Made by a program: the position numbers and the translations under genes. A stretch of 42,260 nucleotides of DNA from Chiloscyllium plagiosum (taxonomy: Eukaryota), in NCBI RefSeq assembly GCF_004010195.1, contig NC_057719.1, forward strand, positions 32,668,138 through 32,710,397. The letters run 5' to 3'. This document shows, in pieces, positions 1 to 42,260 of this stretch. The notes under the pieces are model-generated. The model made no database searches. It saw only the letters and a program-made list of their open reading frames with translations, and had not been told where the DNA came from. Each line of letters begins with the position of its first letter. Within the stretch, counting starts at the first letter, position 1.

Positions 1-156
1 TTTCTCCCCACCCCCACCCTCCTCTAGCTTATCTCTCCATGCTTCAGGCTCACTGCCTTTATTCCTGGTGAAGGGCTTTTGCCCGAAACGTCGATTTTGA
101 AGCTCCTTGGATGCTGCCTGAACTGCTGTGCTCTTCCAGCACCACTAATCCAGAAT
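1..156 (+). mobile_element. Penelope-like element terminal repeat (pLTR) fragment, family A, with mutated hammerhead motif at 61-96
   Basis: attc-CTGGTGA-A-GGGC-tttt-GCCC-GAAACGTC-gatt followed by ggatgctgcctgaactgctgtgctcttccagc, homologous to the copies at 7683, 17651, 31474, 35599 and 41955. Runs off the window start. Confidence 0.8.
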
Positions 157-322
157 ACGATGGCTGGGATGCAGCGTGACATCAAAGCATTGGCTCAGTT
201 CTTGCACCAGTGGAGGTCTCCTTGAAGGCCTCAATCCTCACTCCTTGCCTGAGGCGAGGTGACTCTCTGGTTAAGCCACCTCCAGTCATCTCTCTCTGAG
301 AGCGCGGGATATGTTTCACCAG

Positions 323-1801
323 TAGAGTCATAGATTCATAGAGATGTACAGCACGGAAACAGACCCTTCGGTCCAACATGTCCGTGCCAACCAGATATCC
401 CAACCCAATCTAGTCTGACCTGCCAGCACCTGCCCCCATATCCCTACAAACCCTTCCTATTCATATCCATACACGTTCCATACATGCAACGTTTTCTCAG
501 TGAAAACGTTGCACCTTAGGTCTCTTTTACATCTTTCCCCTCTCACCGTAAACCTATGTCCTCTAGTTCTGGACTCCCCCACCCCAGGAAAAAGACTTTG
601 TCTATTTATCCTATCCATGCTCCTCATGATTTTATAAGCCTCTATAAGGTCACCCCCCAGCCTCCAACATTCCAGGGAAAATAACCCTAGCCTATTCAAC
701 CTCTCCCTATAGCTCAAATTATCCAACCCTGGCAACATCCTTGTAAATCTTTTCTGAACTCTTTCAATTTTCACAACATCTTTCCAATAGAAAGGAGACC
801 AGAATTGCACACAATATTCCAACAGTGGCCTAACCAATGTCTTTTACAGCTGCACATGACCTCCCAATTCCTGTACTCAGTACTCTGACCAATAAAGGAA
901 AGCATGCCAATCGCCTTCTTCACTATCCTATCTACCTGAGACTCCAGTTTCAAGGAGATATGAACCTGCACTTCAAGGTTTCTTTGTTCAGCAATACTCT
1001 CTTGGACCTTACCATTAAATGTATAAATCCTGCTAAGATTTGCTTTCACAAAATGCAGCACCTCACTTATCTCAATTAAACTCCATCTGCCACTTCTCAG
1101 CCCATTGGCCCATCTGATCAAGATCCCGTTGTAATCCGAGGTAACCTTTTTCATTGTCCACTACACCTCCAATTTTGGTGTCATCAGCAAACTTAGTAAC
1201 TAGACCTGTTATATTCACATCCAAAACATTTACCTAAATGACGAAAAGTAGTGGACGTAGCACCGATCCTTGTGGCACTCCAGTGGTCACAGGCTTCCAG
1301 TCTGAAAAACAACCCTCCACCACTACCCTCTGTCTTCGATCTTTGAGCCAGTTCTGTATCCAAATGGTGAGTTCTCCCTGTATTCCATGAATTCTAACCT
1401 TGCTCACCAGTCTCCCATGGGAATCTTGTCGAATGCCTTACTAAAGTCCATATCGGTCACATCTAGCACTCTGCCCTCATCAATTCTCTTTATTACTGCT
1501 TCAAAAAACTCAATCAAATTTGTGAGACATGATTTCCCACACATAAAGCCATGTTGACTATCCCTAATCAGTCCTAGCCTTTCCAGATACATGTATATCT
1601 TGTCCCTCAGTATTCCCTCCAACAACTTGCCCACCACTGACATCAAGCTCACTAGTCTATAGTTCCCTGGCTTGTCCTTACCACATTTCTTAAACAGTGG
1701 CACCATGTTAGCCAACCTCCAGTCTTCCGGCACCTCACCTGTGACTATCGATGATACAAATATCTCAGCAAGAGGCCCAGCAATCATTTCCCTAGCTTCC
1801 C
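323..1801 (-). mobile_element. CR1/HER1 LINE, 5'-truncated, frameshifted ORF2 (RT and C-terminus)
   Basis: ORF pieces 1404-1787 (VPEDWRLANMVPLFKK..PGNYR..SQHGF..KSCLTNLIEFF..DFSKAFDK), 771-1154 and 457-837 (LEYCVQFWSP..IERVQKRFTRMLPG). 8-bp tail repeat tagagtca/tagattca at 323-343. Confidence 0.95.
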
Positions 1802-2713
1802 AACTATGGCAAATTTATCTTATCTTTTACTCCATAACTTTGTGACTCCCATGCTATAGGTTTAGGTTCTAGGTCCAACCAATATGCTGTCTGTTTCGCC
1901 GCAGTACTGGATTGAATTAGCTTTGCTGAGTTTGTGTTTCCCACTTGTATAAGTCACGCTCTGCCTCCTTACCCCTACTATATCAGAAATGAAGTAGGGT
2001 TCTATATCAACGTCCTGCCCACTATTTTTAAAGCCTGTAGTCTTCTTATTCAATGGACATCCAGCACTGGGATGAATAGTAACTTGAGATGGTAAATGGT
2101 GATTAATTTGGATAGATATGAGGTATTGTATATTGGTGAAACAAACAAGGGCCTGATTTATATAATTAATGGTAGGGTCCTGGGTAGTGTTGCAGAGCAA
2201 AGAGACCTAGAGGTTCAGGAATGTAATTCTTTGAAACTTGTGTCATAGGTAGATGGGCTGGCTAAGAAGGTGTTTAACGCACTTGCCTTCATTGCTCAAA
2301 TGATTGAGAATAGGAGTTGGGATGTTGCATAGGATGTTGGTGAGGCATTTTCTGGAGTACTGTGTACAGTTCTAGTTGCCCTGCAATAACAAAGATTTAA
2401 TAAATTGGAGAGGGTTCAGAAAAGATTTCTCCAGATGTTGCTGGGACTGTAGGTTTGAGTTAGAAAAATAGGCTGGATAGGCTGGGCCTTTTTTCACTGA
2501 AGGACAGGATGTTGAGGACTGACCTTATAGAAGTTTATAAAATCATGAGGTGCATAGATAAGGTAAATAGCAAGGGTCTTTTCCCCAGGATTGGGGAGTT
2601 CAAAACCAGGGGGCATATTTTAAGGTGAGAGGAGAAAGTTTTAGAAAAGGCATTAGCAGCAACATTTTTGCAGAGAGTATGGTTCATGTGTGGAATGCAC
2701 TGCCAAAGGAAGT

Positions 2714-2918
2714 TAAAAATCACACAACACCAGGTTATAGTCCAACAGCTTTAATTGGAAGCACTAGCTTTCGGAGCGACGCTCCTTCATCAGGTGATTG
2801 TGAAGGAGTGTCGCTCCGAAAGCTAGTGCTTCCAATTAAACCTGTTGGACTATAACCTGGTGTTGTGCGATTTTTAACTTTGTACACCCCAGTCCAACAC
2901 CGGCATCTCCAAATCATG
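2714..2918. mobile_element. PLE terminal-repeat fold-back insertion, family B, with 15-bp TSD
   Basis: Inverted arms about 2710-2789 and 2801-2880 with an 11-nt spacer. TSD actgccaaaggaagt at 2699-2713 and 2919-2933. Removing the insert restores the CR1 WNALPKEVV sequence. Confidence 0.85.
2759..2799 (-). ncRNA. Minimal type I hammerhead ribozyme motif (family B), intact core
   Basis: Minus strand reads aatcac-CTGATGA-A-GGAGC-gtc-GCTCC-GAAA-GC-TA-gtgctt: CUGANGA/GAAA core, 5-bp stem II, palindromic AGCU stem III, UA cleavage site, stem I cac/gtg. Confidence 0.8.
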
Positions 2919-3144
2919 ACTGCCAAAGGAAGTGGTGGATGCAGGTACAGTTACAGCATATAAAAGACATTTGGATAAGTTCATGAATAGGAAAGATTTG
3001 GAGGGATATGGGTCAAATGAAGGCAAGTGGGACAAGTTTAGTTTGGGAACATGATCAACACAGATTATTAGGAGCGAAGGGTCTGTTTCTATGCTTATGA
3101 TTCCATGACTCTATGAGCAAAGGGCAGCGGATTGTGCCACTTCA

Positions 3145-3200
3145 CTCCAATGAGACCCACACCTCTCCAATGAGACCCATTCCTCTCCAATGAGACCCAT
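3145..3200. repeat. 20-bp tandem repeat, about 3 copies
   Basis: ctccaatgagaccca recurs at 3145, 3165 and 3185. Confidence 0.9.
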
Positions 3201-3842: not shown

Positions 3843-4672
3843 TTTGATTTGATTTATTATTGTCAGATGTACTGGGATGTATATACAATGTAAAGTATTG
3901 TATTTTGCGCTAACCAGTCAAATCATACCTTACACAAGTACATCCAGGTAACAGAACAGGCTGCAGAATATTGTGTTCCAGCTACAGAGAAGGTTCAGAG
4001 AAAAATCAACTGTGTATGAGAGGTCTGTCCATAAGTCTGCTCACAGCAGGAGGAAGCTAGTCTTGAATTTGTTGATGCAGGTTTTCAAACTTTTGTACCT
4101 TCTTCCCAATGGATGAGGGTAGAAGAGAGGATAACCACAGTGAGAGAGATTTTTGATTATGTTGGCTGCTTTCCCGAGGCAGCAGGAAGTGTAGATAGAG
4201 TCAATAGAAGGAAGGTGCTTTTCGTGATGGACTGGGCTACGTTCACAACTCTCTGTAATTTCTTGTGGTCTTGGGCAGAATAATTGCCATACCAAACTGT
4301 GATTCTGAATTTCCTTCTGAGAAAGTACAAGCTTGATGTGTTTTCTTAACTGTAGTGTCAACGTGAGTGGACTAGGTTAGATTGTTGGTGCTATTTACTC
4401 TTAGGAACTTGAAGTTCCTGAACACCTCCACCTCAGCACCATTGAATCAAACAGTGGCATGTCCTCCACTCTGCTTCCTGAAGTCAATGACCAGCTCCTT
4501 CATTTTGCTGACATTGATGGAGAGATTGTTGTCTTTACACCATGTCACTAAGCTGTCTATCATTGCTTGAGATCTGACACACTACGGTGGTGTCATCGGC
4601 AAATTTGTAAATGGAGTTAGAGCTGAATTTGCCCATGTAATCATGAGTGTATAAAGAATTTAGTAAGGAGCT
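3843..4672 (-). mobile_element. Rex1/Babar-type LINE 3' fragment with internal deletions
   Basis: Minus strand SIYKFADDTTVV at about 4581-4616. ORF 4041-4361 (LPSIDSIYTSCCLGKAANIIK..GRRYKSLKT..KFKTSF) is a typical Rex1 C-terminus. Tail ttgat repeats at about 3845. Confidence 0.8.
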
Positions 4673-4673
4673 G

Positions 4674-4768
4674 AGTGGTTAGCACTGCTGCCTCACAGCG
4701 CCAGGGACCCAGTTTCAATTCCACCCTCAGGCGACTGTGTGCTGTTTGCACATTTTTTTCTTGTGTCT
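4674..4768 (+). mobile_element. HE1-type SINE, 5' part (split by an LTR-like insertion)
   Basis: agtggttagcactgctgcctcacagcgccagggaccc..ttcaattcc tRNA-like head, matching the copy at 29955. Confidence 0.85.
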
Positions 4769-4777
4769 TGAGTACAT

Positions 4778-5722
4778 GGGATTAAGCAAAAGTCACCATT
4801 ATCCAAAATACTGGACAAGATTCTGGCCTTTTCTAATATTGAAAATAACAGACAAAATCCTGGGCTCAGGCTGCACCGAAAACACAATAGAACCAGAATG
4901 CTTTCTGTCTGGGACTATTGTTCAGCCTGGATTTCCAATTTACACCTCCACTTTAAGAGAACAATCAACCAAATTGAACACTCGAGACCGAAACTGACTT
5001 TTACACCTCAGGCTACCCTGCACAGACAATATGGGGTCTACAGAGATACCAAATATTAAATTTCAATCAAAATCCATTCACACATATTCTTAACTATCGA
5101 GAAACCAATTGACTTCAACAGGAACAACAGTAAGACAATGGAAATTGCAGATTTAGCGCGAAGGTGGGGGCCTACGATTACTATAATTGCAGGCCCTGAC
5201 CTTACCTGAGGGAGCTATCCCCATAAGCATTCCAAAGAACTAATTCCAGAAGGAGAATTCCAACAGCTAATTCCAACGGCTATTCCTAAGAGTTATCTCC
5301 GGAAGCGCGATCCCAACAGCAGTTCCGAGAGCTCCTGGCACAGTGGAACCAATGGCAACTGAGCATAACTAGCAGATCCAAGAACTGATGAAAACCCCCA
5401 ATCCGCCTGACACCAGGCCTCAGACACATTCCGGCCAGCAAAACCAGCAGAAACTAAGGAAAACCAAGTACTTACTGATAAATCCAATAAGAGCCTTACC
5501 ACATCAGCAAAACAAAAAGGTCTATGTAATCTAAAGTCTTCATCCAGGCACTGGGTAAGGCAAGTGGGAACACCCAACTGTACTTCAAAATCATAATTTC
5601 CACAGCAGTAAGCTGAAACTCCAGAGATCCCAATGTTCTGACCTCGCTCGCAAGGAGGGGAAGGTGGGTGGTGATTGTGCATTGGGATCCCAGTGTTGGA
5701 ATTCTGATTAACTTGGTGTTTT
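4778..5722 (+). mobile_element. Solo-LTR-like repeat, 3'-truncated copy
   Basis: Colinear similarity with 15504-16953 (shared gaacaatcaac, ttttacacctcagg, acagagatac, caccaggcctcaga, ggccagcaaaaccagcagaaa, ggaattctgatta). Confidence 0.7.
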
Positions 5723-5808
5723 CTGGTGGGATGCACGACAGAGCGTCAGTGTGGACTTGATGGGCTGAATGGCCTCTTTCCATACCATAGGGATTCTACG
5801 ATTCTATG
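5723..5808 (+). mobile_element. HE1-type SINE, 3' part
   Basis: gtcagtgtggacttgatgggctgaatggcct...gggattctacgattctatg tail. Confidence 0.8.
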
Positions 5809-6039
5809 TGTGTTTGCTTCTCACTCCACAGGTTAGGTTAATATCATTGTCAGGAAACTTGCAAATATTGAAAGTTAGAATTGAACCTGAGATTTATTGA
5901 AATTAGAGGTAATTTCATTATGACAGGTCAAGGAGACTAATAAAATTAATATGAGAAAATTTTCTCAAAGCACTAGCAATCATAACCTCAGTATTTCAAT
6001 TTTGGTACTTGCTGATCTCTTGAAATAGTCACTGTGCTA

Positions 6040-6830
6040 TTAAATGCCTTATAAGGATGAACATGCTTTAGGTTAGGTTTCTGTACTTAACAAGAATTAC
6101 TATTTATTACAAATTAATATATTCTAGCTACAGATAAATAATTATATTCTATCAACATATAACTCATCTAGTTAAAACTCTAACTCACTTATAAAATTCC
6201 CTCTGCACACACATAAACAGTTACAATAAAAATGGATGTTATGAGAAGGATCAACTGGAAAAGCAGTTCTATAGTGCCTGGTCACAGGATTCACTGAAAT
6301 GAATATTTTTCTTGTCATGACTGCTGTTCTGCAATCTTCCTTCTTCAGGTATTTTCACTTATTTGCATGAGGTACAGGGTGACTAGTTTAATATTACAAA
6401 GTCTCTAACTTCCTGGTTAAAAGCCACTGATGAGGGGGAATGAATTAGCTTTATTCATGGGTTGAATGTTTTTACTGCAGAGCTCCGAAGGCTTCGAACA
6501 AAACATTCACACCTGCAAGTTGATCAACTACCTGGGTGCCAATTGCGTAGTTGGTGGCAGGCAAAAAGCCTTTGCCAACAACAACTGGTGACCAGTCCAC
6601 AGATCAATCTTCTTGCTGGCTGAATCTCTCTTCATTCCCATTTTCTAGTTTCAGTTCATCTGTAGTCAGTTTCCTCATTGCTTGAACAAACAACACTTAC
6701 AATGAGAGCCAGGTAACTTACTTTTAAAAAGTGCAGTAATCCTTTCCATAACACTTGGTTTTTAAAACTGTCCATCTCCCATTTCAGTCAATAGTAAAAA
6801 ACACAGAAAACATAAAGCTTTTACACAATT
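6040..6830. repeat. Unclassified old dispersed repeat, copy 1 (approximate limits)
   Basis: Shares colinear blocks with 25890-26710: tatttatt, attctagctacagataaata, taaaactctaa, actgcaga, aaaacagaaaa-like end. Confidence 0.6.
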
Positions 6831-7682
6831 CTGAAAAGATTATTTTTCCATTTCCCGTTTTCCATGCCAGTTACTTAGTCAATTGATCAAAAACACTCAA
6901 ACTTATTAAACTGGGGAATTAAACTTATTTTGTTAGTCTTAGTTAAGCTCAAAGTTTATTCTTCAATTTGAAAGCTCTGTGTACTGAACACAGCCTTTCA
7001 CCTGTAATCTTCTATTCATTTTTCATACATAGTTCTTTAGTAATTTATGAGTTAAAGGTCCTCTCACTTTCTAGGGAAACATTGTACATTATACCATCTT
7101 TTGTAAACTCTAACGTCTGATCAGTTTGGTGTACACTTTTGGAAGACAACATAAGGAATGAGTTCACTAATTGAATCGAATGGATAATATCTTAAAACCA
7201 AAAGTGAACATATCTGTAATGTAACACACTGCACATATGTAAAAGTGGAATTTTTGGACTATTTTTTAAGGTTAAACTTATGTTGTTGACTATTACATGG
7301 CTACTACTTTTGTGAGGCTGAAATTTATACTAGAGGGATCCTGAGCTCTGCTGAACTGCACACAAAGGGAGGTTGTCACCTGACTCTGAGCTGATGTGTC
7401 TGAAACTTTTGTGCCAAATTCTTCTATTTTCCTCTGTTTTCTCTCATCTGTGTTATAATAGTTTTTATTTCTAATAAAAAAAAGTTATCAGACATTTGAC
7501 TCTCATACAGTCTCACGGATCGTTGTAGCTATGAGAAATTGTCAACAGTTGCACAGTAATTATAGTGAAGTAAATGCATATAGGCCTATCCTATACAGGA
7601 AATGATGCTGTGATCAACTTTGTATCACACTAATTATACTAATTATAGTGCTCATTCGATAATGAACTTAAGAAATCCGTAG

Positions 7683-7903
7683 GAGAAAGTGAGGACTGCA
7701 GATGCTGGCGATCAGAGCTGAAAATGTGTTGTTGGAAAAGCGCAGCAGGTCAGGCATCATCCAAGGAGCAGGAGAATCGACGTTTCGGGCATGAGCCCTT
7801 CTTCAGGAATCCTGAAGAAGGGCTCATGCCTGAAAAGACGATTCTCCTGCTCCTTGGACGCTGCCTGACCTGCTGCGCTTTTCCAGCAACACATTTTCAG
7901 TTC
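7683..7903. mobile_element. PLE pLTR fold-back insertion, family A, with 12-bp TSD
   Basis: Arms 7718-7808 and 7810-7900 are near-perfect inverted repeats. TSD agaaatccgtag at 7671-7682 and 7904-7915. Confidence 0.9.
7774..7811 (-). ncRNA. Minimal type I hammerhead ribozyme motif (family A), intact core
   Basis: Minus strand reads gattc-CTGAAGA-A-GGGC-tcat-GCCC-GAAA-CG-TC-gattc. The plus-strand mirror copy (7807-7844) is mutated to GAAAAGAC. Confidence 0.75.
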
Positions 7904-8516
7904 AGAAATCCGTAGTCTAACGTTGCTGTGAATTTTAGATCAAAACACATATTAGCATGAAAAATAAATTCATTTTCTCATTGTAACATTTATGTACAGG
8001 ATAATGCCTTGACTCACAAATGTTGATTTGAAGAACTAGGGTCAAACTTTACATGAGATCCACTTTTACTTGCGTGTATATGGTGTTTGTAACAGACAAG
8101 TTGTTCAATATAATCTTAGGAATAAGGCTTTTTTGCTTAAGAACTCGAGGAACAAAGAATTGTAGAACCATCAGACTAAAACAAAAAGAATGTTTTATGC
8201 ATTTTAAGCTATGAATATGTTAGATTGCTCTATTATAGCTCATGTGTAAAGGGCAGAGAGCATTGCACATGCATTATGCATCCTACTCAACTGAACAGTA
8301 AATCAAACTGTCTTAAAAAGGGAGAAAACATCCCTGTACACTCAATCTTCCTTTTCTAATCAGATTTATTTAATATTGACATTTGTACTTAGGCACAGTG
8401 AAATGTGGATAATGTCACCACGTTCTGGCGCCATCTTGCATTACAGAATAAATGACTGAATAAACTGCAAAAATGAGGAAAAAATGGGATAAATTAATAT
8501 TAAATTACATTTTACA

Positions 8517-8792
8517 TTAGATTCCTACAGTGTGGAAACAGGCCTTTCAGTCCACATTGACCCTCCGAAGAGTAAACCACCCAGACACATTTCCCTTTGA
8601 CTAATCTATCTAACACTATGGGCAATTTAGCATGGCCAATTCACCTAACCTGCACATCTTTGGACTGTGGGAGGAAACCGGAGCACCCAGAGGAAACCCA
8701 CACAGACACGAGAAGAATGTCTGTTGGAATTTGCACAGTCTCCTGAGGCTGGAATCGAGCCTGGGAACCTTGCATTGTGAGGCAGCAGTGCT
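8517..8792 (-). mobile_element. HE1-type SINE
   Basis: Reverse complement of the 29955 copy (ttagattcctacagtgtggaaacaggcc ... gtgaggcagcagtgct). Confidence 0.9.
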
Positions 8793-11077: not shown

Positions 11078-11384
11078 CAACACACTGGAAAGTCTGGTCA
11101 GCACCACATGATGATAGAAATCATAATTTGCCTAGATTGTACAGTCCTGCTGCATGTTCCCTGTACCTACGCTGACACCTTGACCAAAATGGTGCCCAGC
11201 TCAGAAAGCTGTATTTGCATATTTCCTTTGGAACCTGTAGGTTTTGAAATCCAGGTGCTACACAATCGACTTGAGACCTGCTTATCCGAGTCACATTAAA
11301 GCATGGAGCAATTGGACAAAGAAAGCCTGCTGGAAAATTCTATTGGCTAATGTCTTCTGAAAACAAAAGGGGGGGGGGGGGGGG

Positions 11385-11693
11385 GGGCACAGTGGTTAGC
11401 ACTGCTGCCTCACAGCGCCAAAGACCTGGGTTCAATTCCCGCCTCAGGTGACTGACTGTGTGGAGTTTGCACATTCTCCCTGTGTCTGCGTGGGTTTCCT
11501 CCGGGTGCTGGGGTTTCCTCCCACAGGCCAAAAATATGCAGGTTAGGTGAATTGGCCATGCTAAATTGCCTGTAGTGTTAGGTGAAGGGGTAAATGTAGG
11601 GGAATGAGTCTGGGTGGGTTGGTCTTCGGAGGGTCAGTGTGGACTTGTTGCGCCAAAGGGCCTGTTTCCACACTGTGTGTAATCTAATCTAAT
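11385..11693 (+). mobile_element. HE1-type SINE preceded by a 19-nt G run
   Basis: ggcacagtggttagc A box, ggttcaattcc B box, aatct tail repeats. Confidence 0.95.
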
Positions 11694-19090: not shown

Positions 19091-19127
19091 TAAACTTTGT
19101 AAATGAGGATTTGATCACGTGATTAAA

Positions 19128-31473: not shown

Positions 31474-31603
31474 AGGAGAAAGTGAGGATTGCAGATGCTG
31501 GAAATCAGACTGGAGAGTGTGGTGATGGAAAAGCACAGCAGGTCAGGCAGCATCCGAGGAGCAGGAGAATCCATGTTTCGGGCAGAAGCCCTTCATCAGG
31601 AAT
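31474..31603 (-). mobile_element. Single PLE pLTR 3' fragment, family A, with mutated hammerhead cleavage site
   Basis: aggagaaagtgagga..gcagatgctgg...gtttcgggcagaagcccttcatcaggaat. Minus strand reads CTGATGA-A-GGGC-ttct-GCCC-GAAAC-ATG. Confidence 0.85.
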
Positions 31604-31624
31604 TTACGTATAATCCAAGGACGC

Positions 31625-32120
31625 AGAAAATAGAACATAGAATATGGAACAATACAGTGCAGAACAGGCCCTTCGGCCCTCGATGTTGCGCCGACCTGTG
31701 AACTAATCTAAACCCATTTCCCTACACTATCCCATCATCATCCATATGCTTATCCAAGGATTGTTTAAATCTCCCTAATGTGGCTGAGTTAACTACATTG
31801 GCAGGCAGGGCATTCCAAGCCCTTATCAGTCTTTGAGTAAAGAACCTGCCTCTGACATCTGTCTTAAATCTATCACCCCTCAATTTACAGCTATGTCCCC
31901 TCGTACAAGCCGACATCATCATGCTAGGAAAGCGAGTCTCACTGTCCACCCTATCTAATTCTCTTGATCATCTTGTATGTCTCTATTATATCCACACTTA
32001 GCCTTCTTCTTTCCAATGAGAACAGACCCAAGTCCCTCAGCCTTTCCTCATAAGACCTTCCCTCCAGACCAGGCAACAACCTAGTAAATCTTCTCTGCAC
32101 CTTTTCCAATGCTTCCACAT
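31625..32120 (-). mobile_element. CR1/HER1 3' fragment
   Basis: ORF 31722-31949 (TRGHSCKLRGDRFKTDVRGRFFTQR..AWNALP) and a tagaaca tail. Confidence 0.93.
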
Positions 32121-34495
32121 TGGAAACAGGAGTAGAGCCTCACTGGTTCAACCAGAAGTCTCATTCACATATGGTCTTGCTTGTAGTTCTTCAATATTTA
32201 CAGTGTAAGAGGTGAAGCCTCATCCCATCAACAAGCTTGTCCAAATAAGGCAGCAGTACTGACTGACACCAGCGAACCATACTCAGGTACACAATTCAAG
32301 ATGGAGTGTAATACAAAAAAGACAATCATCTTAGAAGGTTCAGGTAAAGCAGGCTGAGAAAAAAAGGAGCAGTAGGGATTGAGAATTAAAGGAGGTGCTT
32401 GTGAAGGGCAGTGGTGAATGGAGGGAACAAAATGAGATGAAGAGAAGAGAATTACAGCAAAAGGGGAGGGGGTCAAGGAAGGGTACAAACTTCACATTTA
32501 AGGTGGGAACACAATGGGGTAATGAGGTACATTGGGAAGGGTGAAAGAGCAGACAATTTGAATAAGGGCTGCAGTTCGGTGAAAGTTGGGCATGGGGATC
32601 CGAATAGAGTGGGACAGGGAAAAAGCAGGAACAACCAAGGTGACAGTGAAAGATGCAGTAGTTACAGGAAGAGAGTGAAGAAGGTAAGGAGAAGGCGATC
32701 TACAGTGATAGAAGGGATGAAGGAGTATAGAGGAGGAGAGAAAGTGAATGAATGAAACGAAAAATACAATCACTATATGGCTCATTAATCATCTTATAAA
32801 AGGCTTTGCACAGAATGCAGAGTATACATGAGATGGGCATGAGATCTGTTCAGGACATGGGAATGAAACTGTCATGTAAACTGGACATTCAAAGGTTGTA
32901 GGACTGTATCACAGAAGCTAACAAAACCCAAACCACTAATGGAAAGCAATGTAAAGATCAAGGCTGCAAATATCTGCTTCATGGCAGAGTGAAGATGGGG
33001 AAAATCAGTCATGAGAATGCCCCTCACCATGTAGAGGTGGCTGGAGGACAGGCTTTCAGTCAACACATGAATAACCTAGTAAGCATCCAAAGGGTAGGGT
33101 ATGGCTTAACTATGTGAAGATCTCAAATGGAACACATATATGTCACTTGTGATATATCTTCACAGATCAGTATTTCCATTCCAGATGTTTGACCAACTAT
33201 ACCCAGCAGCTGTATGAGCATTCCCAAGATTTGGAAGAAGAAGGAGATGGAACAGAATAAGGGACATGAGGTTCAGGGCACTGTAGCTGTGGATGAAAAG
33301 GCAGCACCTGACGAGTGAAACCAGGGTCCTCAGCTCTGTCCAGCACTGTACAAAGTCATGATCTACTGAAGGAGTTTGCAGCAAGCTACAGATAAGTGAA
33401 AGACAGTATTGGAGAGGTGTTTTAGGGCTAAACATATTGTTTGCCACACCTTTCACCTCCTTCAGGTAAACTTACAGCCAGGCACCTTGACTGGATGGGC
33501 CATGCCTCTGGTATTGAGATATGGAGCAGCATTGAACATTCTAGTCATTGGCTGCTATGAAATCTCAATGGTGGACATATGCGGTATCTCCCATTCAGCA
33601 ACCAAGAAGAGCATTCATTAGCTCACCTGATGTCATTTATACAAAAAGCTATAGATTATCCAGTGGACCTAGAGAATCAAGGTACCTGAGCCATCAGATT
33701 TGCCAACATCGTTTGTTTCCCTCAGGTCCAAAGGCCCACCGATTTAACTAAAGTGGAGGAAAGATGGATTTTAGTTTCCGATTTCTGTGAAGACGTGACT
33801 TATCTTTGCTTAAAGGACAGAAGTCATTTTGAACATTGAATTCAAATCAGCATTTACAAGGTGTTACCTGATACCAGCTTAAAATGATCATCAAGCCTCC
33901 TAGGGAGGTAATTGCTGAGGTGTTTGCTGACTTGAGTTTTACGACCATTGCAGAAAAAAAGAGAGAATGAGCCAGAAACAGGTTCATGCAGGAAGAAGAG
34001 ACCCATAACAGCAAAGGTGCTCTGTAGCAGCTGCTAAGTGCTCAGCACTAGGAAGTGTCCTGAGGTGTTTAGAGATCAGTGGGAAGAAAACACCAATAAG
34101 TGGGAAAGGAGAGGCCTATCAGGGTGTTGGAGAGGAAGGTATTCTACAAGGTTTATGAGAACATGACCTTAGGGAAACCATGTTCAGTAATAGTGAGCCG
34201 TGTTTGCAGTTTGCTTTAAAGGTCTCAGTGAGAACCAGGAAAGTAGCACCTAATGAATGCCCAAACATTTGTAGAAAGGAAGTTAAAAACAGCCATGCCA
34301 GCTGAGCAAGACATTTTATCCCTGAGGTTTAAGTGCAATGGTATTACTTGGATAAATTAGCTGAACCCTTCTTTTCTAATGTTGGTAATGAAATCAACCT
34401 AATAGTCCTTGTCTAGTGTAATAGGTAATAAACATTTTTTTTGTTAAAAATACATTGCCAGCCTATTGTAAGTTGGAGCAGTGCTTGGTGACTCA

Positions 34496-34615
34496 GCCTG
34501 ATCTGCTGTGCTGTTCCAGCAATAAAGTTTCAACTTTGCTGCCTGACCTGCTGTGCTGTTCCAGCAATAAAGTTTCAACTTTGATCTCCAGCATCTGCAG
34601 ACCTCACTTTCTCCT
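34496..34615 (+). mobile_element. PLE pLTR 3' end, family A, with a 42-bp tandem duplication
   Basis: gcctga(t/c)ctgctgtgctgttccagcaataaagtttcaacttt occurs twice, then gatctccagcatctgcagacctcactttctcct, identical to the end at 35998-36075. Confidence 0.9.
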
Positions 34616-35598
34616 TTAACATTGGCCAGGAAGGCCATCGTGGATACACATCGCGGAGCCGATTTGATGCTACGCACATTGATGCTGGCAATTTGTAACC
34701 CCATTTTAACAGTTTACGAGGTTAACAGAGTGTCCATTTGCTTCTGGTCTTGCCCCTCTGAGGTAGCTGTGTGCATCCCCGTGGTGACGGCAAACTGCTG
34801 GACCTTCCCAGGGCTGAGGTAGCTGTCCGGCTCCACGCTGGAGCCATTTCCCTGTTCTGGTGTCTTCGAGTCGGGCCCAGGGTCCGCATGGTCCAGTTCT
34901 CCATCTGACAGCAGGGCTGTCACAGAACGGCTGCTCCCAGTTACCTGGAGCTGTGGGCCGGTGGGTACCTCTTGGTTCTCACCAGGTGGGGGGAGGCCTT
35001 TACCCATCCCCTCAGAAGGATCGTCTTTTCCTGCTTGGGCGGTGCTCCCCTCCTTTTTCCCCACGGTGCTCTGTCTCTTCCTCTGGTGATGACCCTCTTT
35101 GCGCCCGTCCTCACCGTCGGAAGAACTGCCTGTATCCTCGTCGTGTAGGTGTCGCTTCCCCCTTCGCTGGGTGACTTTGGGAGGTTTCTTCTTCCTGCTT
35201 TTGACAGTAATCCAATCCTCTGCCTCCTTTGATCCCTCCTCTTCCATTTCCTCCGTCTGTCTTGAAGGAGCTTGGATCAGCTGCTGCATCTCCCCGCTGT
35301 CTGCCGTCTTCTCCTCTACAGCGTGCCCTTCCTTCTGGGTGCCTCCAGACACCGTTCCCGTGCTGGTTTGTGGTACCTTGCTGGTCTTAGGTGGTCCATG
35401 GCTCGTGTTGCCACCTCCGGCCATCTGTGCGTAGATGTCGGCCCTCGTCTTGGGCAGGCCTTGTACATGTGGCCCGCCTCTCCGCACAGACTATAGTTCT
35501 TGGCCTCCTTACATCCCTTGGTCAGGTGGCCTTCCTGCTGGCAGTTTCGGCAGACGGTCACCTTGCAATCCGCCGCCATGTGGCCTGACCTCCCGCAG
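34616..35598 (-). mobile_element. Tx1-clade (L1-related) LINE internal fragment: ORF1 C-terminal half plus the first 30 codons of ORF2
   Basis: Three zinc knuckles (CGRSGHMAADC, CRNCQQEGHLTKGC, YSLCGEAGHMYKAC), frameshift near 35440, low-complexity tail with WITVKSRKKK, stop at 34714-34716, 9-nt spacer, then ATG at 34704 MGLQIASINVRSIKS (APE endonuclease start). Confidence 0.85.
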
Positions 35599-35642
35599 GC
35601 TGGAACAGCACAGCAGGTCAGGCAGCATCTAGGGAACAGGAG

Positions 35643-35678
35643 ATTCGACGTTTCGGGCACAGGCCCTTCTTCAGGAAT
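35643..35678 (-). ncRNA. Minimal type I hammerhead ribozyme motif, intact
   Basis: Exact reverse complement of 35946-35981. Confidence 0.8.
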
Positions 35679-35945
35679 GAGCAGAGAGTGTTCAGCAGGA
35701 GAAGATAAAAGGTAGGGAGGAGGGACTTGGAGGAGGGGAGTTGGAAGTGGAGGAGATGCGGTGGAGGGCACCGTCGACCACGTCGCCTTCCTGACCTGCA
35801 GTCTTCTTGTTGACCTCTCCGCCTCCATCCTACTCCGACCTATCACCCTCACCTTGACCTCTTTCCACCTATCACATTTCCAACGCCCCTCCTCCAAGTC
35901 CCTCCTCCCTACCTTTTATCTTCTCCTGCTGAACACTCTCTGCTC

Positions 35946-35981
35946 ATTCCTGAAGAAGGGCCTGTGCCCGAAACGTCGAAT
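35946..35981 (+). ncRNA. Minimal type I hammerhead ribozyme motif, intact
   Basis: ATTC-CTGAAGA-A-GGGC-ctgt-GCCC-GAAA-CG-TC-GAAT: 4-bp stem I, 4-bp stem II, palindromic ACGU stem III, predicted cleavage after C35977. Confidence 0.82.
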
Positions 35982-37024
35982 CTCCTGTTCCCTGGATGCT
36001 GCCTGACCTGCTGTGCTGTTCCAGCAATAAAGTTTCAACTTTGATCTCCAGCATCTGCAGACCTCACTTTCTCCTTTTCGACTCAAAGGATATTCATCTC
36101 CTTAGAAATGTAAAGGGGCTAAACTATACTGTTTGACCCCTGAAATGCAAACACCCGTCCTATGTTCCCACTTTCCCCGAGATGATGTTCTTCCCTGAGA
36201 GCAGCAGCGAATGACAGTCTCAGCAATCTTTGCACTTCCCCTCATGATGCAAATGCGTCTACAAACAGTGATCAGTGTCCTTCAGTCAGAAGCCTTAAAA
36301 AATCAAAAGGGACCACAAGACTGTTGTATAATGTGCTACACTTGCTAAATGGGTGGAGCTCCGGAATGGAAAGACACAATCACTTTAATGGGGTTGCACT
36401 ACACACCTCATAACAGCCAGCAGGAGGAAGAGGAACAGATTCGTGGACAGATTATGGAAAAAAAATGTTAAAACAAAAGGGTTGTTAATTTTAACATCCC
36501 TTATATTGCTCTACGCATCTCCCTTAATGTCAGGTGCTTAGATGGGGGAATTTGTTAGGTGCATCGAACAGGGTTGTTTGAAGCAATATGCAAATCGTCC
36601 AACTAAGGAACAGGCCAAACTAAACCTGCTATGGAACGAACTCAGCTAGGTGATCACAGTTTTGGTAGGGGAGCATTTCAGTAACATTGACAATAATTCC
36701 TTAAGTTTTAATTTACTTATAGATAAGGATAAGATTAGTCCTCAGATGAAAGTACTACATTGAGGGAAGGCTAACTACCACAATATTTGGCAGGAATGGG
36801 AATGGGCACATTTGGAAAAATATGGGCTTATTAATGACAAGCAGCATGACTTTGTACAGGGGGAGGTTCTGTCTCACAAACTTGATAAACCTTTTTTAGG
36901 AACTAACAAAGGTGATTGATAAGGTCAGGATGGTGGAGGTTATCTACAGGGACTTTAGCAAGGTTTTTGACAAGGTCCCTCATGGCAGGCTGATACAGAA
37001 GGTGAAATCACATGGGATTTGCAG

Positions 37025-37219
37025 TGAGCTGGTAAGATGGTTACAGGTTAGGTGGATTGACCATGCTAAATTGTCCACAGTGTCCAGGGATGTGCAGGCT
37101 ACAATGAAGGGGTACTGGAAGAGCTTAAGAGGTTGAGTCTGGGTGGGATGCTTGTCGGAGGGTTGGTGTGGACTCAATGGATCAAGTGGCCTGCTTCTAC
37201 ATGATAGGGATTCTATGAT
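37025..37219 (+). mobile_element. HE1-type SINE, 5'-truncated
   Basis: caggttaggtggattgaccatgctaaattg...gggattctatgat. Confidence 0.85.
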
Positions 37220-37342
37220 CAATTCGCTTGGTCATAGAGAATAGCCAAGGAAGGATGTTTTTCTGACTGGAGTTCTGTGACAAGTAGTGTTCTGCAAGGA
37301 ACAATGTTGGGACCCCATCCATATACAGCAGGACCCTGCTTT

Positions 37343-37787
37343 GGGGCAGCGTGGTGGCTCAGAGGTTAGCACTGCTGCCTCACAGTGCCAGGGCCCTATA
37401 TTTAAATCAAGCCTTGAGTGACCGTCTGCGTGAAGTTTGCTTGTTCTCCCTGTGTCTATGTGGGTTTCATCTGGGTGCTCTAATTTCCTCCCACAGTGCA
37501 ACGATGTGCAGGTTAAGTGGTTTGGCCATGCTAAATTGCCCTGTAGTGTGCAGGATAGGTATATTGGCCATGCTAAATTGCCCTGTAGTGTGCAGGCTAG
37601 GTGTACTGGCCATGCTAAATTGCCCTGTGCAGGCTAGGTGTACTGGCCATGCTAAATTGCCCTGTAGTGTGCAGGCTAGGTGGGTTAGTCATGATAAATG
37701 TGGAGAGAGGGTGAGACTAGATCGGCTGCTCTTTGGAGAATTGTCATAGACACAAATCCCTTTTTGTTTTGCACTGTAGGGATTACA
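37343..37787 (+). mobile_element. HE1-type SINE with an internal tandem array of about 42-bp units
   Basis: A box gtggctcagaggttagc. ggccatgctaaattgccctgt starts at 37524, 37566, 37608 and 37645, with a degenerate fifth unit at about 37687. Confidence 0.9.
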
Positions 37788-40700
37788 GGGTATAGATAGA
37801 CTGAAGAAATGGTAAATGGAATTTAATCTGAACAACTTCATAGTGATGCATTTTGGAAAGTCTAATGCAGGCAGGAAGTAGACATTAAATGGAAGAACCA
37901 TTAGAAACATTAAAACATAGATGGATCTAGGCATACAGGTTCACAATTCCCTGAAGGTGGAAATGCAAGTGGATAAGGTGGTCAAGAAAGCATATGGTAT
38001 GCTTGCCTTCATTAGTTGGGGCATAGAATATAAAAATTGGCAAGTCAAGTGGCTGTAGTATTGTACTTTAGTTAGGCCACATTTGGAATATTGTGTGCAG
38101 TTCTGGTCACCACATTACCAGAAGGATGTGGACGCTTTGGAGAGAATACAGAAAAGGTTTACCAGGACGTTGCTTGGCTTGGAGAATTTTAGCTCTGAGG
38201 AGACATTCCACAAACTTGGTTTGTTTTCACCTGAATGTTGGAGGCTGAAGGTTGACCTGATTGAGGTTTACAACATTATGAGAGACATAGACAGAATGGA
38301 TAATCAGAGTCTTTTTCACAGAATAGAAATGTAAATTATGAGGGGACTTGGTTTAGAGTAAAAAGGGGAAAGTTTGAAGGAGATGTGAGAGGCATGTTTG
38401 TTTACACAGAGGGTGGAAAGTACCTGGAATTTGCTGCCAGAGGGAGTTAGATGCAGATACAGTAGCAAAATTCAAGAGGCATCTTGACAGATACATGAAT
38501 AGGCAGGAAATAGATGGTTAATGATTGTGTAGAGGCAAAAGTTTAGAAAGGTGATGTGGGGGTGCAATCATGGTGGGTCAAAGGGCCTGTTCCAGTGCTG
38601 AACCGTTCTCTGTTATTTATTTGTGACAAGTGTCAGACCGTATAGAAAATTTTCACAATTAGAGCCAAAAAGATCTCAATGTTGTTTGATTTTTCTTTCC
38701 CCACCATTACATCTTGGTGTCACCTGAGCTTGAGGAAGCCTGTTTTCTGGTTTCGGCAGGTATTCACTGGCTCTCTGGGATGTAGAATGCTCCAGCATAG
38801 CTGGAAGCATTACCTGCTGAGCTGAGCTGAGCTGAGCTGATCAAAACATTTTGGGTCTTGGCAGTGGAGAGGTGGTGTGAGAAGGCACGTCTGGAGTGGG
38901 AAACCATTAGAAACATGGCTGCCCCTCCTCCTCTGTTTCTCTAATATCCAGTGAAGGGAAGGGGACACCCGGAAGGATGACAGATCTCTCAATCCTTTCC
39001 TGTCTAGCCCATGAATGAATGCTTTGAGTGATGGAATGAGCGTTCCTGCAGATATCCAGCAGGTCCAGATGGTTCTGCTGGTCCTGGTACATGGAGGCAG
39101 CCTTGCATTTGTCAGCCAGAATCAGGATATCAGACAGAACATGGACAGACTGCTCGACTCTTCACTTCAGACTCTGGCATCTCTGCCAGACCTTATCCTG
39201 ATTGCTATACATCTCCAACAGCTCATTAATGATCAAGTCCATACTGTACTGGGTCAGCCAGAGCCTATTCGCTGGCAGTCCCCCGAGTGTCAGAGATCTT
39301 GGCCATTTCCTCCTGCTGTACATGATCATTCTTCCAGTGCTGAACTCATCAGACTGTGACCCCATGCCTACTCTAGATAGATGACCAAGAGAGGTGAACA
39401 TCTCTGCACTGGACAAAACAAGGGAGATAGGCCTTGATGGTAGTACCTTTGAGGCTTACTCTTGCTCCTCCTCAGAAATGTGCTTCAAGAGGCCGATAGA
39501 AGTGGACCTGGTGTCAGGTTTGCAAGAGAGAAATAGAGGACCATAGAGAAACATAATGATTTGTTGGCGCTTCATTTGAGGCTGAGATTAGCAGATTGGA
39601 GGCAGTCTCACTAGAAGTTTTTTGAATTTAATCCTATGGTCGGCACATTCACAACCCCCTTAATCTCTTGCCAGAATGCCAGCCTATACCTCAGAGAACG
39701 TTAGGAGCCTTCTGTCAGCCTTTCCCCATGCGTCCCTCAAAGCCCCCAGTCAGAACATCCTTGTGATTATTGTGCATGTTCTGCTGCAGAACAGGAAAAG
39801 CAATAAGAGTCATTCAGACATGAGCACCAATCATGTGCAGATTAAGTTCCTATCCCCAGACTTCCCCTACAGACCTTCTCATCCAGACCTGTTCAGGCAC
39901 TCACCCATTTAATTCCACTTTTGTGGCTGTCAGATAGTTGAAAATTCTGTCAAATGGTCTGAAAACTATATTAGAACTTTGTGCATTTATGTTGTTTTGA
40001 TTACTAGAAACCTCAGTTGAGAAGAAAAAAGAGCAAATGAAAATCTTTTGTGCAATTTGACTGCTTTGTAAACAAGATGAGATGGCACCATTTTGTTTTG
40101 CATTATAAAATGTCACTTGTTGACATTTTCGATTTTAGAAATCATAATTGTGAGACAAGAAGTAGAGTTAATGAAAACTCTAAGTGCCTGCTAGATACAT
40201 ATAAATTATGCAGCAATGCTGCTTTTATTTTAGCATCTGCCTCTTATACACTGCATGCTCTGTCCTTGCCAGAACTTAACAAATCGAAGTAAAAGAAAAC
40301 TGTGTGAAAAGAACACGTGCGGTATGTTGTCAAGGTGTCTGCTATTTTGTACATTTGACTAAAAACATTTATATTAACTTTGTGTTTATGTTGCTAAAAC
40401 ATAATAAAACAATAGGATGACATCTTGAAAAATTGTCAAGTTACTAACAGGATTCCTGCGGTTACAAGTAAGAATTGCAGCGTTAGTTTAAAATTAACTG
40501 CTGATGGAATGGTTTCTGAAATATTGCAAGGCATGATTTTATTTTTATTACGCCATAAATGGCAAATTGTTAATTGCAAAATATTCTGCACTTGAGTATA
40601 GTCAATCATATAATAGCTTTTTTGTTCCAGCAAGTAGAACATTTCAGGATTATTTATAATGTTTTGGCAGTACTTACTCTATTCTGTCAACCTCCATAAA

Positions 40701-41092
40701 ATGTTTTTGTTAACAACAGTCCCTGGATTACAACTTGGATTGCAATTCTTTTCATGTGGGGGTCACGATTTCTTAACTGCCCACAGCAGGCCCAATGGGG
40801 ATAAGCAATGAGCACATTTCTCATTCCCTCTTCATTTATGATTGTGGTGTGCAGCCCATTGTGATCCATGACTGCTGGCTCCCTGCTCACACAAGAGATC
40901 TAAGAGCACGTGAACCTTGCATATGCTGTAGCTAGACTCCAGCTCATTAAAGCAGTGTGCTCCTCTTAAAGTTGTACTGGGAAACTAAAGACTGCGAATA
41001 ACTGACATTGCAATGGTCAAAGGGAAGGAAAATGAAATACTAGGTAATGACTCCAAGATTTTAAGACACTTCCTGGAGGCATTAATGTCGGA

Positions 41093-41215
41093 CATAAGAC
41101 CATAAGAAATAGAACAGGAGTAGGTTGTTTCAGCCCTGAAGCCTACTCTGTAATTCAATAAGATCATGGCTGTTCTGACCTTCCTCATGTCCACTTTCCT
41201 GCATTTTCCCTGTAA
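41093..41215 (-). mobile_element. CR1 3'-terminal fragment
   Basis: cataagaccataagaaatag..caggagtagg..ttcaataagatcatggctg, the same tail type as at 13173. Confidence 0.75.
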
Positions 41216-41278
41216 ACAAGGCAAATGTAAGACCTCAAAAAGAAAGATGACAGCTTTCTAGGAGGCAGGATATTTTGA

Positions 41279-41375
41279 CCTGATGAAGCGCTTATGTTTG
41301 AAATGTCAATTCTCCTCCTCCTCAGATGCTGCCTGACCGGCTGTGCTTTTCCAGCACCATGCTCTTCTACTCTGA
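41279..41375 (+). mobile_element. Decayed PLE pLTR fragment, family A
   Basis: cctgatgaagcgcttatgtttgaaatgtcaattctcc...gatgctgcctgaccggctgtgcttttccagcacc. Confidence 0.75.
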
Positions 41376-41699
41376 CCCCAGGCTATCCACAGAGAGTAGG
41401 AACAGGCAGGGGAGTGCCAGAGCATAGCTCTGAGGCCTGGGCAGCAATGTCAGATGATGTTTAATGACCAGATATGGATTGTCAAATTTGGTTAATGCGT
41501 CTAGATATCATATCTGACACCCACCGAATTATCAACCTCTGATGCTGCTCAATGCGTTGAATTGGATCCGATGTATGGGCTTCACCCTTTGTCATACCTG
41601 ACTGACTGTCCCCACTACATGGTTTTCTCAAAAATGGGGTTAGCTGTAAAACAGCATTGAGACCATACCATTTTTAGCAACAACTTAGATTGATATCGA

Positions 41700-41954
41700 A
41701 ACTTCAATATGCCGTTTACGTGATGAATTGGTTTTGGGAAATCAGGAAATGAGTTACCAAAATATTGATAGCCTCTGATCTGCTCATGTGACCACAGTAC
41801 TTAGACAACTAGTATAGTTCAGCTTTTGGTCAATGGTAACCCCAGGTTATGATATTTGGAAATTCAATGATTGCCATTGAGATTCAAGGGGAGATGGTTA
41901 GGTCCATTCTTGTTGGAGGTGGTCACTGTCTAGTACTTGAGTGGTGTGAATATT
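41700..41954 (-). mobile_element. Old LINE fragment, probably the same lineage as 28222-30560
   Basis: ggtcaatggtaaccccagg...aaggggagatggttag resembles the sequence at about 29070-29180. Confidence 0.5.
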
Positions 41955-42260
41955 AGGAGAAAGTGAGGACTGCAGATGCTGGAGATCAGAGCTGAAAAAT
42001 GTGTTGCTGGAAAAGCGCAGCAGGTCAGGCAGCATCCAAGGAGCAGGAGAATCGACATTTCGGGCATAAGCCCTTCTTCAGGAATGAGGAAGGTGTGCCA
42101 AACAGGCTAAGATAAAAGGTAGGGAGGAGGGACTTGGGGGAGGGGCATTGGCAATGCGATAGGTGGAAGGAGGTTAAGGTGAGGGTGATAGGCCGGAGAG
42201 GGGGTGGGGTCGGAGGGGTTCTTCCCGACCTCTCCGCCCCCCCCCCCCCTTTGGCCTACC
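41955..42260. mobile_element. PLE pLTR inverted pair, family A (runs off the window end)
   Basis: Minus arm 41955 to about 42219 is near-identical to 7681-7810 where they overlap. Hammerhead motif at 42050-42085 (GAAATGTC). The plus arm starts at about 42220 (ccgacctctccgcccc). Confidence 0.88.

Follow-up and report, generated by a model that had tools for sequence, protein, structure and literature searches.

Minimal hammerhead ribozymes (min-HHRs) in the pLTRs of metazoan Penelope-like elements (PLEs) were described in 2014 (Cervera and De la Pena, PMC4209133), where single min-HHRs showed no cleavage in vitro, and truncated PLEs were named as the source of solo copies and of opposite-strand pairs separated by 100-700 bp. 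A one-sided tail of 30-40 bp together with an adjacent inverted copy has been documented for PLE insertions (PMC8557442), the same insertion signature has been described elsewhere (PMC3846280), and two initiation sites of reverse transcription have been reported (PMC11167929). Another class of ORF-less repeats, the non-LTR retrozymes, carries type I hammerheads related to PLE pLTRs; these repeats form head-to-tail tandems with at least two hammerheads, and dispersed monomers have been described (Cervera and De la Pena 2020, PMC7229834; Li et al. 2026, bioRxiv 10.64898/2026.07.22.740005).

The window, that is, the whole analysed stretch of 42,260 nt from the bamboo shark Chiloscyllium plagiosum, holds copies of two repeat families (A and B) at all 12 sites that an earlier note had listed as 12 hammerhead motifs at 8 loci. 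The note's estimate of roughly one locus per 5 kb agrees with the measured density of one per 5.3 kb, and the repeats total 2,116 bp, or 5.0% of the window. These eight loci are likely 5'-truncated, dead-on-arrival pLTR copies of PLEs that the enzyme of full-length elements at other sites has produced. Their features are as follows.

1-158, plus strand: arm of a family A pLTR, truncated by the window start; box 1 altered to CTGGTGA (65-71); short 3' end, no tail.
2699-2713, no strand: left TSD of family B, 15 bp, within a CR1-type LINE fragment.
2714-2800, minus strand: inverted family B arm without tail; intact minimal hammerhead at 2796-2762, predicted cut between 2765 and 2764.
2801-2918, plus strand: family B arm with a tail of ~40 nt; no hammerhead core, because the arm begins inside box 1; 3' hairpin with fold z -2.5.
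2919-2933, no strand: right TSD of family B, 15 bp.
7683-7809, minus strand: family A arm with tail, starting 3 nt before an intact core (C3 at 7806); left TSD 7671-7682.
7810-7903, plus strand: inverted arm without the ~32 nt tail; U16.1 lost; right TSD 7904-7915 (12 bp).
17651-17899, minus strand: tailed family A arm of greater age, reaching ~120 nt upstream; core preserved (C3 at 17780); left TSD 17637-17650.
17906-18049, plus strand: inverted arm without the ~43 nt tail; box 1 GTGATGA; right TSD 18050-18063 (14 bp); 5' boundary approximate.
31476-31603, minus strand: solo family A copy with tail, beginning 4 nt ahead of the core; cleavage triplet gone; no convincing TSD.
34496-34615, plus strand: hammerhead-less 3' part of a pLTR with a 45 bp internal tandem duplication; left TSD GACTCA at 34490-34495.
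34616-35598, minus strand: cargo, a frameshifted LINE ORF1 of ~980 bp with zinc knuckles, running into the start of ORF2.
35599-35749, minus strand: inverted family A arm without tail; intact core (C3 at 35674); 148/151 identical to 35875-36025.
35743-35785, minus strand: other repeated sequence of ~43 nt, joined to the inverted arm.
35786-36079, plus strand: family A pLTR with full tail and ~140-165 nt upstream; right TSD 36080-36085; 5' boundary approximate.
35946-35981, plus strand: best hammerhead, predicted cut after 35977.
41279-41375, plus strand: decayed solo copy of family A, beginning 1 nt ahead of the core; stems II and I damaged; no convincing TSD.
41956-42219, minus strand: tailed family A arm reaching ~138 nt upstream; the core survives, its 15.2/16.2 pair being U-G (C3 at 42081).
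42222-42260, plus strand: start of an inverted arm, composed of upstream pLTR sequence, truncated by the window end and read from the sequence; hairpin matches of the Rfam scan lie at 42188-42259.

A search of the kind proposed in the earlier note, by a descriptor of type I minimal hammerheads (CUGANGA, 0-1 extra bases, a stem II of at least 4 bp, GAAA), returned 8 matches in the window; 200 dinucleotide shuffles gave 0.3 on average and never more than 2. An Rfam scan of the window gave no hammerhead match at E<=1; its 13 matches all concerned miRNA models under their gathering scores and lay nearly all on the hairpins of inverted arms. Pattern scans for the hammerhead in metagenome contigs and for the families in viral contigs gave 0 matches each, the 48 metagenome loci raised by a 19-mer scan were chance matches (best 34 bp), and a search of sequencing runs for the families gave no RNA run among the matches listed.

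The arms agree with the min-HHR pLTRs of PLEs (PMC4209133) in their minimal type I core, the extra base between positions 9 and 10.1, the G-C closing pair of stem II and the palindromic 15.2/16.2, as well as in the presence of several families in one genome, mostly as solo copies, with opposite-strand pairs within 100-700 bp. They differ from the Schistosoma min-HHRs, whose stem II measures 7-8 bp, in having a stem II of 4-5 bp, and their density in this one window, one locus per 5 kb, seems far above the 4,000-9,000 reported for coelacanth and Xenopus (PMC4209133). Like insertions of endonuclease-bearing PLEs (Arkhipova 2013, PMC3846280; Craig 2021, PMC8557442; Frangieh 2024, PMC11167929), they show 5' truncation, a head-to-head inverted copy, a tail of 30-40 nt at one end and TSDs of ~8-15 bp; unlike these, they have no ORF attached in the window, and many copies consist of almost nothing except the pLTR. 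They share with non-LTR retrozymes the ORF-less type I hammerhead repeat related to PLE pLTRs (PMC7229834; bioRxiv 10.64898/2026.07.22.740005) and depart from them in being solo or head-to-head. Families A and B of this shark were not found described in the literature searched. Both the motif traits and the insertion signature bear out the link to PLE minimal type I hammerheads that the earlier note had drawn.

The hammerheads themselves are unevenly preserved. In three arms the CUGANGA box is missing, reading CTGGTGA at 61(+) and GTGATGA at 17963(+), and being entered only partway at 2801(+); U16.1 is gone at 7812(+), a G occupies the cleavage position at 31599(-), and at 41280(+) stem II is broken and stem I absent. 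A full core, with the type I order of CUGANGA, stem II, GAAA and UH, is therefore found in 6 of the 12 arms (2793-, 7806-, 17780-, 35674-, 35950+ and 42081-), so that the description as 12 hammerhead motifs holds for half of the sites, the rest being broken. Its finer readings proved accurate: the loop II variants of family A (TTTT, TCAT, CTTT, TTCT, CTGT, TTAT) are as listed, the extra A after CUGANGA occurs in 10/10 family A arms and in the minus arm of family B, and reading the arms of family B, which is known from a single insertion, gave stem II as GGAGC/GCTCC and stem III as the palindrome AGCT. Stem II is closed by a G10.1-C11.1 pair and the palindrome at 15.2/16.2 reads ACGT in family A; a strict stem III palindrome is kept in 5/12 arms. 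The CpG at 15.2/16.2 has changed in 6 of 20 letters. Differences amount to 3/110 in the core versus 36/440 downstream (Fisher p=0.03) and to 11/40 in loop II. In the master lineages the hammerhead is likely to have been under selection, and in the copies of the window it is likely a decaying passenger.

Stem I comprises 4 bp at 35946-35981, where the hammerhead is its own minimum-energy fold (-7.1 kcal/mol), an energy no better than that of shuffles (z 0.33); three of the four pairs are kept in six other family A arms, and family B has 3 bp. In computed folds, helix III appears unable to close in the monomer, the double-hammerhead dimer lies 5-14 kcal/mol above the best cofold, and the read-through RNA of each pair would fold into an extended hairpin in which 5-7 of the 7 box-1 bases are paired. 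The predicted cut site was also considered as an element boundary and rejected: 35978 or its equivalent is not the first position of any arm, and hammerhead-less copies begin 20-24 nt further on. Among the matches listed, no start, end or RNA joint falls at this site (one poly(A) single-cell run, ~2% read).

The manner of insertion is recorded in the ends of the copies. An adjacent inverted arm is present in four complete pairs and in a fifth pair that runs past the window end, and thus the sites do not represent 12 separate elements, four loci being head-to-head pairs produced by one insertion each. The 3' tail is confined to one arm in 4/4 complete pairs, with lengths of ~40, 32, 43 and 50-54 nt. 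TSDs of 15, 12 and 14 bp flank three pairs, a length of 12 bp being reached by 0 of 1000 random flank pairs, and the fourth pair combines a 6 bp TSD with an empty site. Two of the eight loci are cut by the window ends and two solo loci lack a TSD; the 5-6 bp candidates at 31.5 kb and 41.3 kb were dismissed as chance, given that 52/1000 random pairs reach at least 6 bp. Upstream of the core the arms extend for 0 to ~164 nt, with 6/12 arms (4/8 loci) starting no more than 7 nt from the core or inside it, and the arm-to-arm junction differs at every locus. The range of 5' extents, the TSDs, the inverted arms and the one-sided tails support one of the two readings offered by the earlier note, that of extreme truncation products.

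The fourth pair is part of a larger structure. The locus at 35.6-36.1 kb exceeds the 480 bp at which the earlier note's size range ended and belongs to a 1.58 kb insertion (34496-36079) with ~980 bp of dead LINE ORF1 between PLE ends; the upstream repeat at 34496-34615, absent from that note's list, shares 81 bp at 100% identity with 35997-36077. The cargo at 34616-35598, which we take to be a LINE of Tx1/L1 type, has an ORF1 piece whose best relative carries ZCCHC3-type RNA-binding domains; in the ESM Atlas the ORF1 piece met only generic zinc-knuckle clusters below 0.9 and the ORF2 start had no usable match. In a related organism, a 640 bp contig runs from 34495 straight to 36102, the joint taking up 15 letters, and represents the empty site. 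The sequence at 35743-35785 recurs in two sequencing runs (36 and 32 contigs), continuing there into one common sequence, and is possibly an interior piece of the master element. As in the capture of foreign DNA by a rotifer PLE, two direct repeats and one inverted repeat surround foreign DNA, with a TSD and an empty orthologous site; the differences are that the cargo is a dead LINE fragment rather than a host gene, that the inverted arm lies beside the downstream repeat, that the TSD measures 6 bp, and that no source locus was found.

Coding traces of a PLE in the window are limited to an RT fragment at 24018-25490, 88% identical to a Chiloscyllium punctatum protein and with no pLTR beside it, which shows that this genome contains PLEs; no further PLE ORF fragment was found in the window. 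The protein search with the pLTR peptide gave one match only, a host protein containing the reading of the repeat, and that with the 45-aa junction peptide found nothing; neither links family A or B to an RT/GIY-YIG ORF.

The other reading of the earlier note, a non-autonomous short-element system, would have ~130-nt RNAs of short copies, transcribed from an internal pLTR promoter, copied in trans by the PLE enzyme in a SINE-like manner. It draws on the arms that start at the front edge of the hammerhead, half of the total, and on public data, in which 9 of the 12 listed arm-to-arm joints in contigs (15 of 304 joints listed) restart at 35946-35965 and 75 RNA reads come loose before 35946, so that palindrome centres pile up at this edge; joints and arm starts cluster more tightly than random truncation would leave them. 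In three runs, the depth summed over the upstream bin is 3.4- to 8-fold lower than that over the tail bin, and tail depth exceeds that of single-copy flanks by a factor of ~2-4 x 10^5, which is not a copy number. Moreover, the promoter of Penelope lies inside the pLTR (PMC2377424), mobilisation in trans needs no more than pLTRs (PMC3846280) and non-autonomous PLE derivatives have been published (PMC8557442; bioRxiv 10.64898/2026.07.22.740005). Front-edge clustering is, however, also expected from the 5' end of a full-length transcript, and the relationships of the copies speak against separate propagation. The short pair at 7.7 kb is closest to the long 42 kb copy (7680-7810 versus 41954-42085, 95.5% over 132 bp), its identity to the other two tail-bearing copies of similar length being 86-87%, so that by sequence comparison short and long copies share one subfamily in the window. 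Pairwise identity was preferred here because a ten-arm tree, in whose alignment some flank was included, had support for 1/7 inner branches. The ever-different arm junction means that no fixed unit was recopied, head-to-head copies would by computed folding be locked in hairpins, and the insertion signature is that of ordinary PLEs. Such a self-propagating family is thus quite unlikely. A wider proposal, under which bamboo sharks would harbour hundreds of thousands of ~130-nt hammerhead-headed copies as a self-propagating, SINE-like PLE population with its promoter at the ribozyme front edge and with repeats shuffling kilobase pieces of old genomic DNA, as at 34496-36079, is regarded as unlikely.

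Two further explanations assign an active role to the ribozyme. Under the retrozyme model, tandem hammerhead repeats would excise monomers that circularise and reinsert; the type I hammerhead, the missing ORF and TSDs above 4 bp (PMC7229834) would fit, as would the report of retrozymes in one chondrichthyan genome and the two direct repeats of the 34496-36079 insertion. No locus (0/8) has two hammerheads in tandem on one strand, however, and cis-dimers are therefore excluded and retrozyme circles improbable at these loci; the upstream direct repeat of that insertion is without a hammerhead, the unit forms no tandem array in the window, the predicted cut site marks neither the start nor the end of any copy, and RNA ends do not pile up there among 2,179 placed reads (one poly(A) single-cell run, ~2% of it read; a weak test for 5'-OH ends), all of which makes this model very improbable. 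That the host has kept the ribozymes to cut its own transcripts at these loci may be suggested by the full cores and by family RNA reads on both strands; it is opposed by copy-specific core damage and CpG decay, by the failure of helix III to close in the modelled monomer together with the published lack of cleavage by single min-HHRs (PMC4209133), and by the best-preserved locus being simply young, as it is missing in the related species, and it can be given hardly any credence.

Under the favoured reading of truncated PLE copies, and following published PLE work, the PLE protein would nick the target and begin reverse transcription at either of two internal positions, separated by 30-40 nt and close to the RNA's 3' pLTR hairpin, which would yield ends with and without a tail, and the inverted arm would be added in integration. 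For the ~130-nt copies, copying might begin in a tandem transcript, at its upstream pLTR, and run to an RNA 5' end just before the hammerhead, a step that we judge about evenly balanced, and with similar balance the longer copies may be ordinary truncations. The hammerhead of the master lineage would likely cut only as a dimer or with the help of protein.

As kinds, all of these features, from minimal hammerheads in PLE repeats through solo copies, inverted arms and tails to the capture of foreign DNA, have been published before. At the density seen, this shark genome supplies natural integration scars in very large number, on which one can ask at which points reverse transcription by the PLE begins and ends, by what route the inverted arm forms and whether the hammerhead has any role. 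The 34496-36079 insertion, whose site is empty in a related species, illustrates cleanly how DNA capture is associated with PLEs in a vertebrate.

All 12 places that the earlier note had listed as hammerhead motifs are copies of two repeat families spread over eight loci in the window, namely family A (ten repeat copies, or arms) and family B (a single insertion), although the full core is retained in just six of the 12, because the box is absent in three arms and three further arms are damaged elsewhere. The loop II list, the extra A and the family B changes described in that note proved correct when the arms were compared, and the descriptor search it had called for, using a minimal type I hammerhead, returned eight matches in the window against a mean of 0.3 and never more than two in 200 shuffles.

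Across the ten family A arms, 3 of 110 core letters are off the majority, compared with 36 of 440 in the downstream 44 nt (Fisher p=0.03); with one arm per locus, the values are 1/77 and 23/308 (p=0.03). Loop II departs from the majority at 11 of 40 letters and N7 in 5 of 10 arms, and the CpG at 15.2/16.2 is changed in 6 of 20 letters. This pattern probably reflects selection on the masters from which the subfamilies were founded, together with decay in the copies. Families A and B are set apart by paired changes in stems I, II and III, with B being one insertion. In the computed monomer fold, stems I and II form and helix III is unable to close; minimal hammerheads are reported to be inactive when single and weakly active as dimers (PMC4209133; review PMC6765202).

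Most arms are arranged in pairs placed head-to-head, as follows.

2714-2918: complete pair, flanked by exact 15 bp direct repeats
7683-7903: complete pair, flanked by exact 12 bp direct repeats
17651-18049: complete pair, flanked by exact 14 bp direct repeats
35599-36079: complete pair, part of a composite locus
41956-42260: fifth pair, extending past the window end

As a chance control for such target-site duplications, none of 1000 random flank pairs reached 12 bp. One arm carries a 3' excess in all four complete pairs (about 40, 32, 43 and 50-54 nt). Six arms at four loci form a short 5' class, beginning inside the core or at most 7 nt ahead of it, and six arms at four loci extend about 39-164 nt further upstream; none of the 12 arms in the window starts at the predicted cut site. 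About 20 nt at 41260-41279, directly ahead of the solo copy, look by eye like a short decayed inverted arm. When RNA reading across any of the pairs is folded by computation, it forms a long hairpin in which five to seven of the seven CUGANGA bases are paired, and no locus of the eight in the window has two hammerheads on the same strand, so that a cis dimer would be impossible at these loci.

Insertions of Penelope-like elements (PLEs) are reported to show strong 5' truncation, a frequent adjacent inverted copy and a one-end tail of 30-40 bp (PMC8557442, PMC3846280), and the window loci are likely truncated insertions of this type. The earlier note had weighed truncation products against non-autonomous short elements. 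A short self-copying family would fit the clustered 5' ends and the upstream drop in public-read depth, but the long copy at 42 kb and the short pair at 7.7 kb show 95.5% identity across 132 bp, compared with 86-87% between that pair and the copies at 31.5 and 36.0 kb; such a family is an improbable source of the short copies, and given this likeness and the lack of tandems, only the truncation half of that reading is supported. A tree of the ten arms left the branching unresolved. Non-LTR retrozymes, which the sources describe as tandem arrays in which the hammerhead occurs at least twice (PMC7229834; bioRxiv 10.64898/2026.07.22.740005), are ruled out at these loci because 0/8 carry a same-strand double hammerhead.

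For truncated PLE insertions, the 130-nt class could arise by copying from the upstream terminal repeat (pLTR) of a tandem transcript to a presumed RNA 5' end directly ahead of the hammerhead; this origin, which has about an even chance of being correct, would give the class without any separate family. Alternatively, copying might stall or switch template at the hammerhead fold. The Penelope promoter is reported to be internal to the pLTR (PMC2377424). For the anole PLE, the protein is reported to begin reverse transcription at two internal tail-bounding sites near the ORF start, and the hammerhead to require protein for cleavage, to be dispensable for insertion in vitro and to have zero reads ending at its cut site (PMC11167929).

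The composite locus is a 1.58 kb insertion in which three PLE repeats, two of them direct and one inverted, flank a LINE cargo (34616-35598); its components are as follows.

34496-36079, 5' component, direct: repeat end without hammerhead, with a 45 bp internal duplication
34496-36079, second component, minus strand: LINE cargo of about 980 bp, ORF1/ORF2 junction
34496-36079, last components: inverted arm, then direct arm with tail

The whole is bracketed by 6 bp direct repeats; its two direct repeat ends match perfectly across 81 bp, and the inverted and direct arms agree at 148/151 positions. The cargo, presumably of Tx1/L1 type, has zinc knuckles. The best relatives of its ORF1 piece (34.7-35.5 kb) are Chiloscyllium proteins; the closest, 450 aa long and uninterrupted, has ZCCHC3-type RNA-binding domains, and comparison with it reveals a frameshift in the window copy. 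Cargo-family contigs in public runs have one more base at 35441, and the pieces listed diverge from the cargo by about 10%. In run X9 of a related organism (organism B; 18 differences in about 1,000 flank letters), a 640 bp contig aligns to 34074-34495 and, 15 letters further on, resumes at 36102; an empty site holding a single 6-mer would give 16. This contig shows the empty site. Contigs of organism A leave the left flank and enter the element for 30 letters (two runs) and span the right junction, 30 letters inside 36085 (one run), just under the bridging rule of 31 letters. On this evidence, a dead LINE fragment of older age likely arrived at this site along with young PLE ends, perhaps through a read-through transcript, perhaps through template jumping at integration.

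Public reads from four runs, the basis of what is said here about the genome at large, were compared with 33900-36500 at 88% likeness. Summed contig depth reaches 6.1, 4.1 and 4.5 million in the tail bin (the 3' extension), compared with 13-20 for single-copy flanks; the upstream bin has 1.8, 0.9 and 0.6 million. These depths suggest copies on the order of 10^5, depth being no copy number. Loose ends accumulate at 34615 and 36075, which mark the tail end, and at 36026. Among the 15 joints listed of 304, 12 connect an inverted to a direct arm, restarting nine times at 35946-35965, three times at 35984-35996 and never at 35978. Organism A contigs also link two tail ends on opposite strands (34614/36075; 12 in one run, 1 in another), suggesting that tail-to-tail arrangements exist elsewhere in the genome beside the usual head-to-head ones. 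A single-cell poly(A) run, about 2% read, gave 2,179 matching reads on both strands with no pile of RNA starts or ends among them, such a library being poorly suited to ribozyme ends.

Protein searches and the window itself gave no link of either family to an ORF. At 24018-25490 (+) lies a piece from the interior of a Penelope-type RT ORF, open for 355 aa before one stop. It shares 88% identity with a Chiloscyllium punctatum protein, and neither a terminal repeat nor a hammerhead stands beside it. A 43 nt repeated piece, 35743-35785 (-), is joined to the inverted arm via short homology and has an open minus-strand frame; in 36 contigs of one run and 32 of another it leads on into a single shared sequence. 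We take it to resemble an interior stretch of PLE proteins; it may derive from the interior of a master element, and a protein search with its junction peptide gave no match. Starting at the ATG 3' of the hammerhead, a reading frame runs without a stop as far as the tail end in four subfamilies, of which one has a 3-nt insertion.

35996-36076: open ATG frame
7683-7760: open ATG frame
17654-17737: open ATG frame
31476-31556: open ATG frame

An annotated PDZ-domain protein of Chiloscyllium plagiosum (P0121) contains the same peptide, which is probably a repeat that has been exonised or mis-predicted.

The window consists of vertebrate DNA rich in repeats (GC 41.8%), and its coding fragments indicate a bamboo shark. 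The family B insertion is nested in a LINE fragment (2085-2695 and 2919-2990), assumed to be of CR1 type, with further such fragments at about 476-1810, 19990-20720, 31630-32120 and 37800-38320. A tRNA-like SINE family has at least seven copies in the window.

4670-4754, 8503-8792, 11383-11701, 16135-16344: tRNA-like SINE copies
19122-19394, 29963-30265, 37044-37699: tRNA-like SINE copies; the one at 37505-37699 contains a 42 bp unit expanded in tandem (4.4 copies)

Searches of the open literature yielded no paper on these shark families; they may be listed in the supplementary tables of bioRxiv 10.64898/2026.07.22.740005. That preprint makes the case that retrozymes of animals derive from PLEs as non-autonomous elements, covers one chondrichthyan among its genomes and reports cleavage of one in nine dimers tested. 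Foreign DNA captured between pLTRs, with an empty allele, has been described (PMC3846280; reviewed in PMC6431247), and the composite locus resembles that published case in holding foreign DNA between PLE repeats and having an empty site. By architecture and working, as read from sequence, the loci would group with truncated PLE insertions bearing minimal type I hammerheads.
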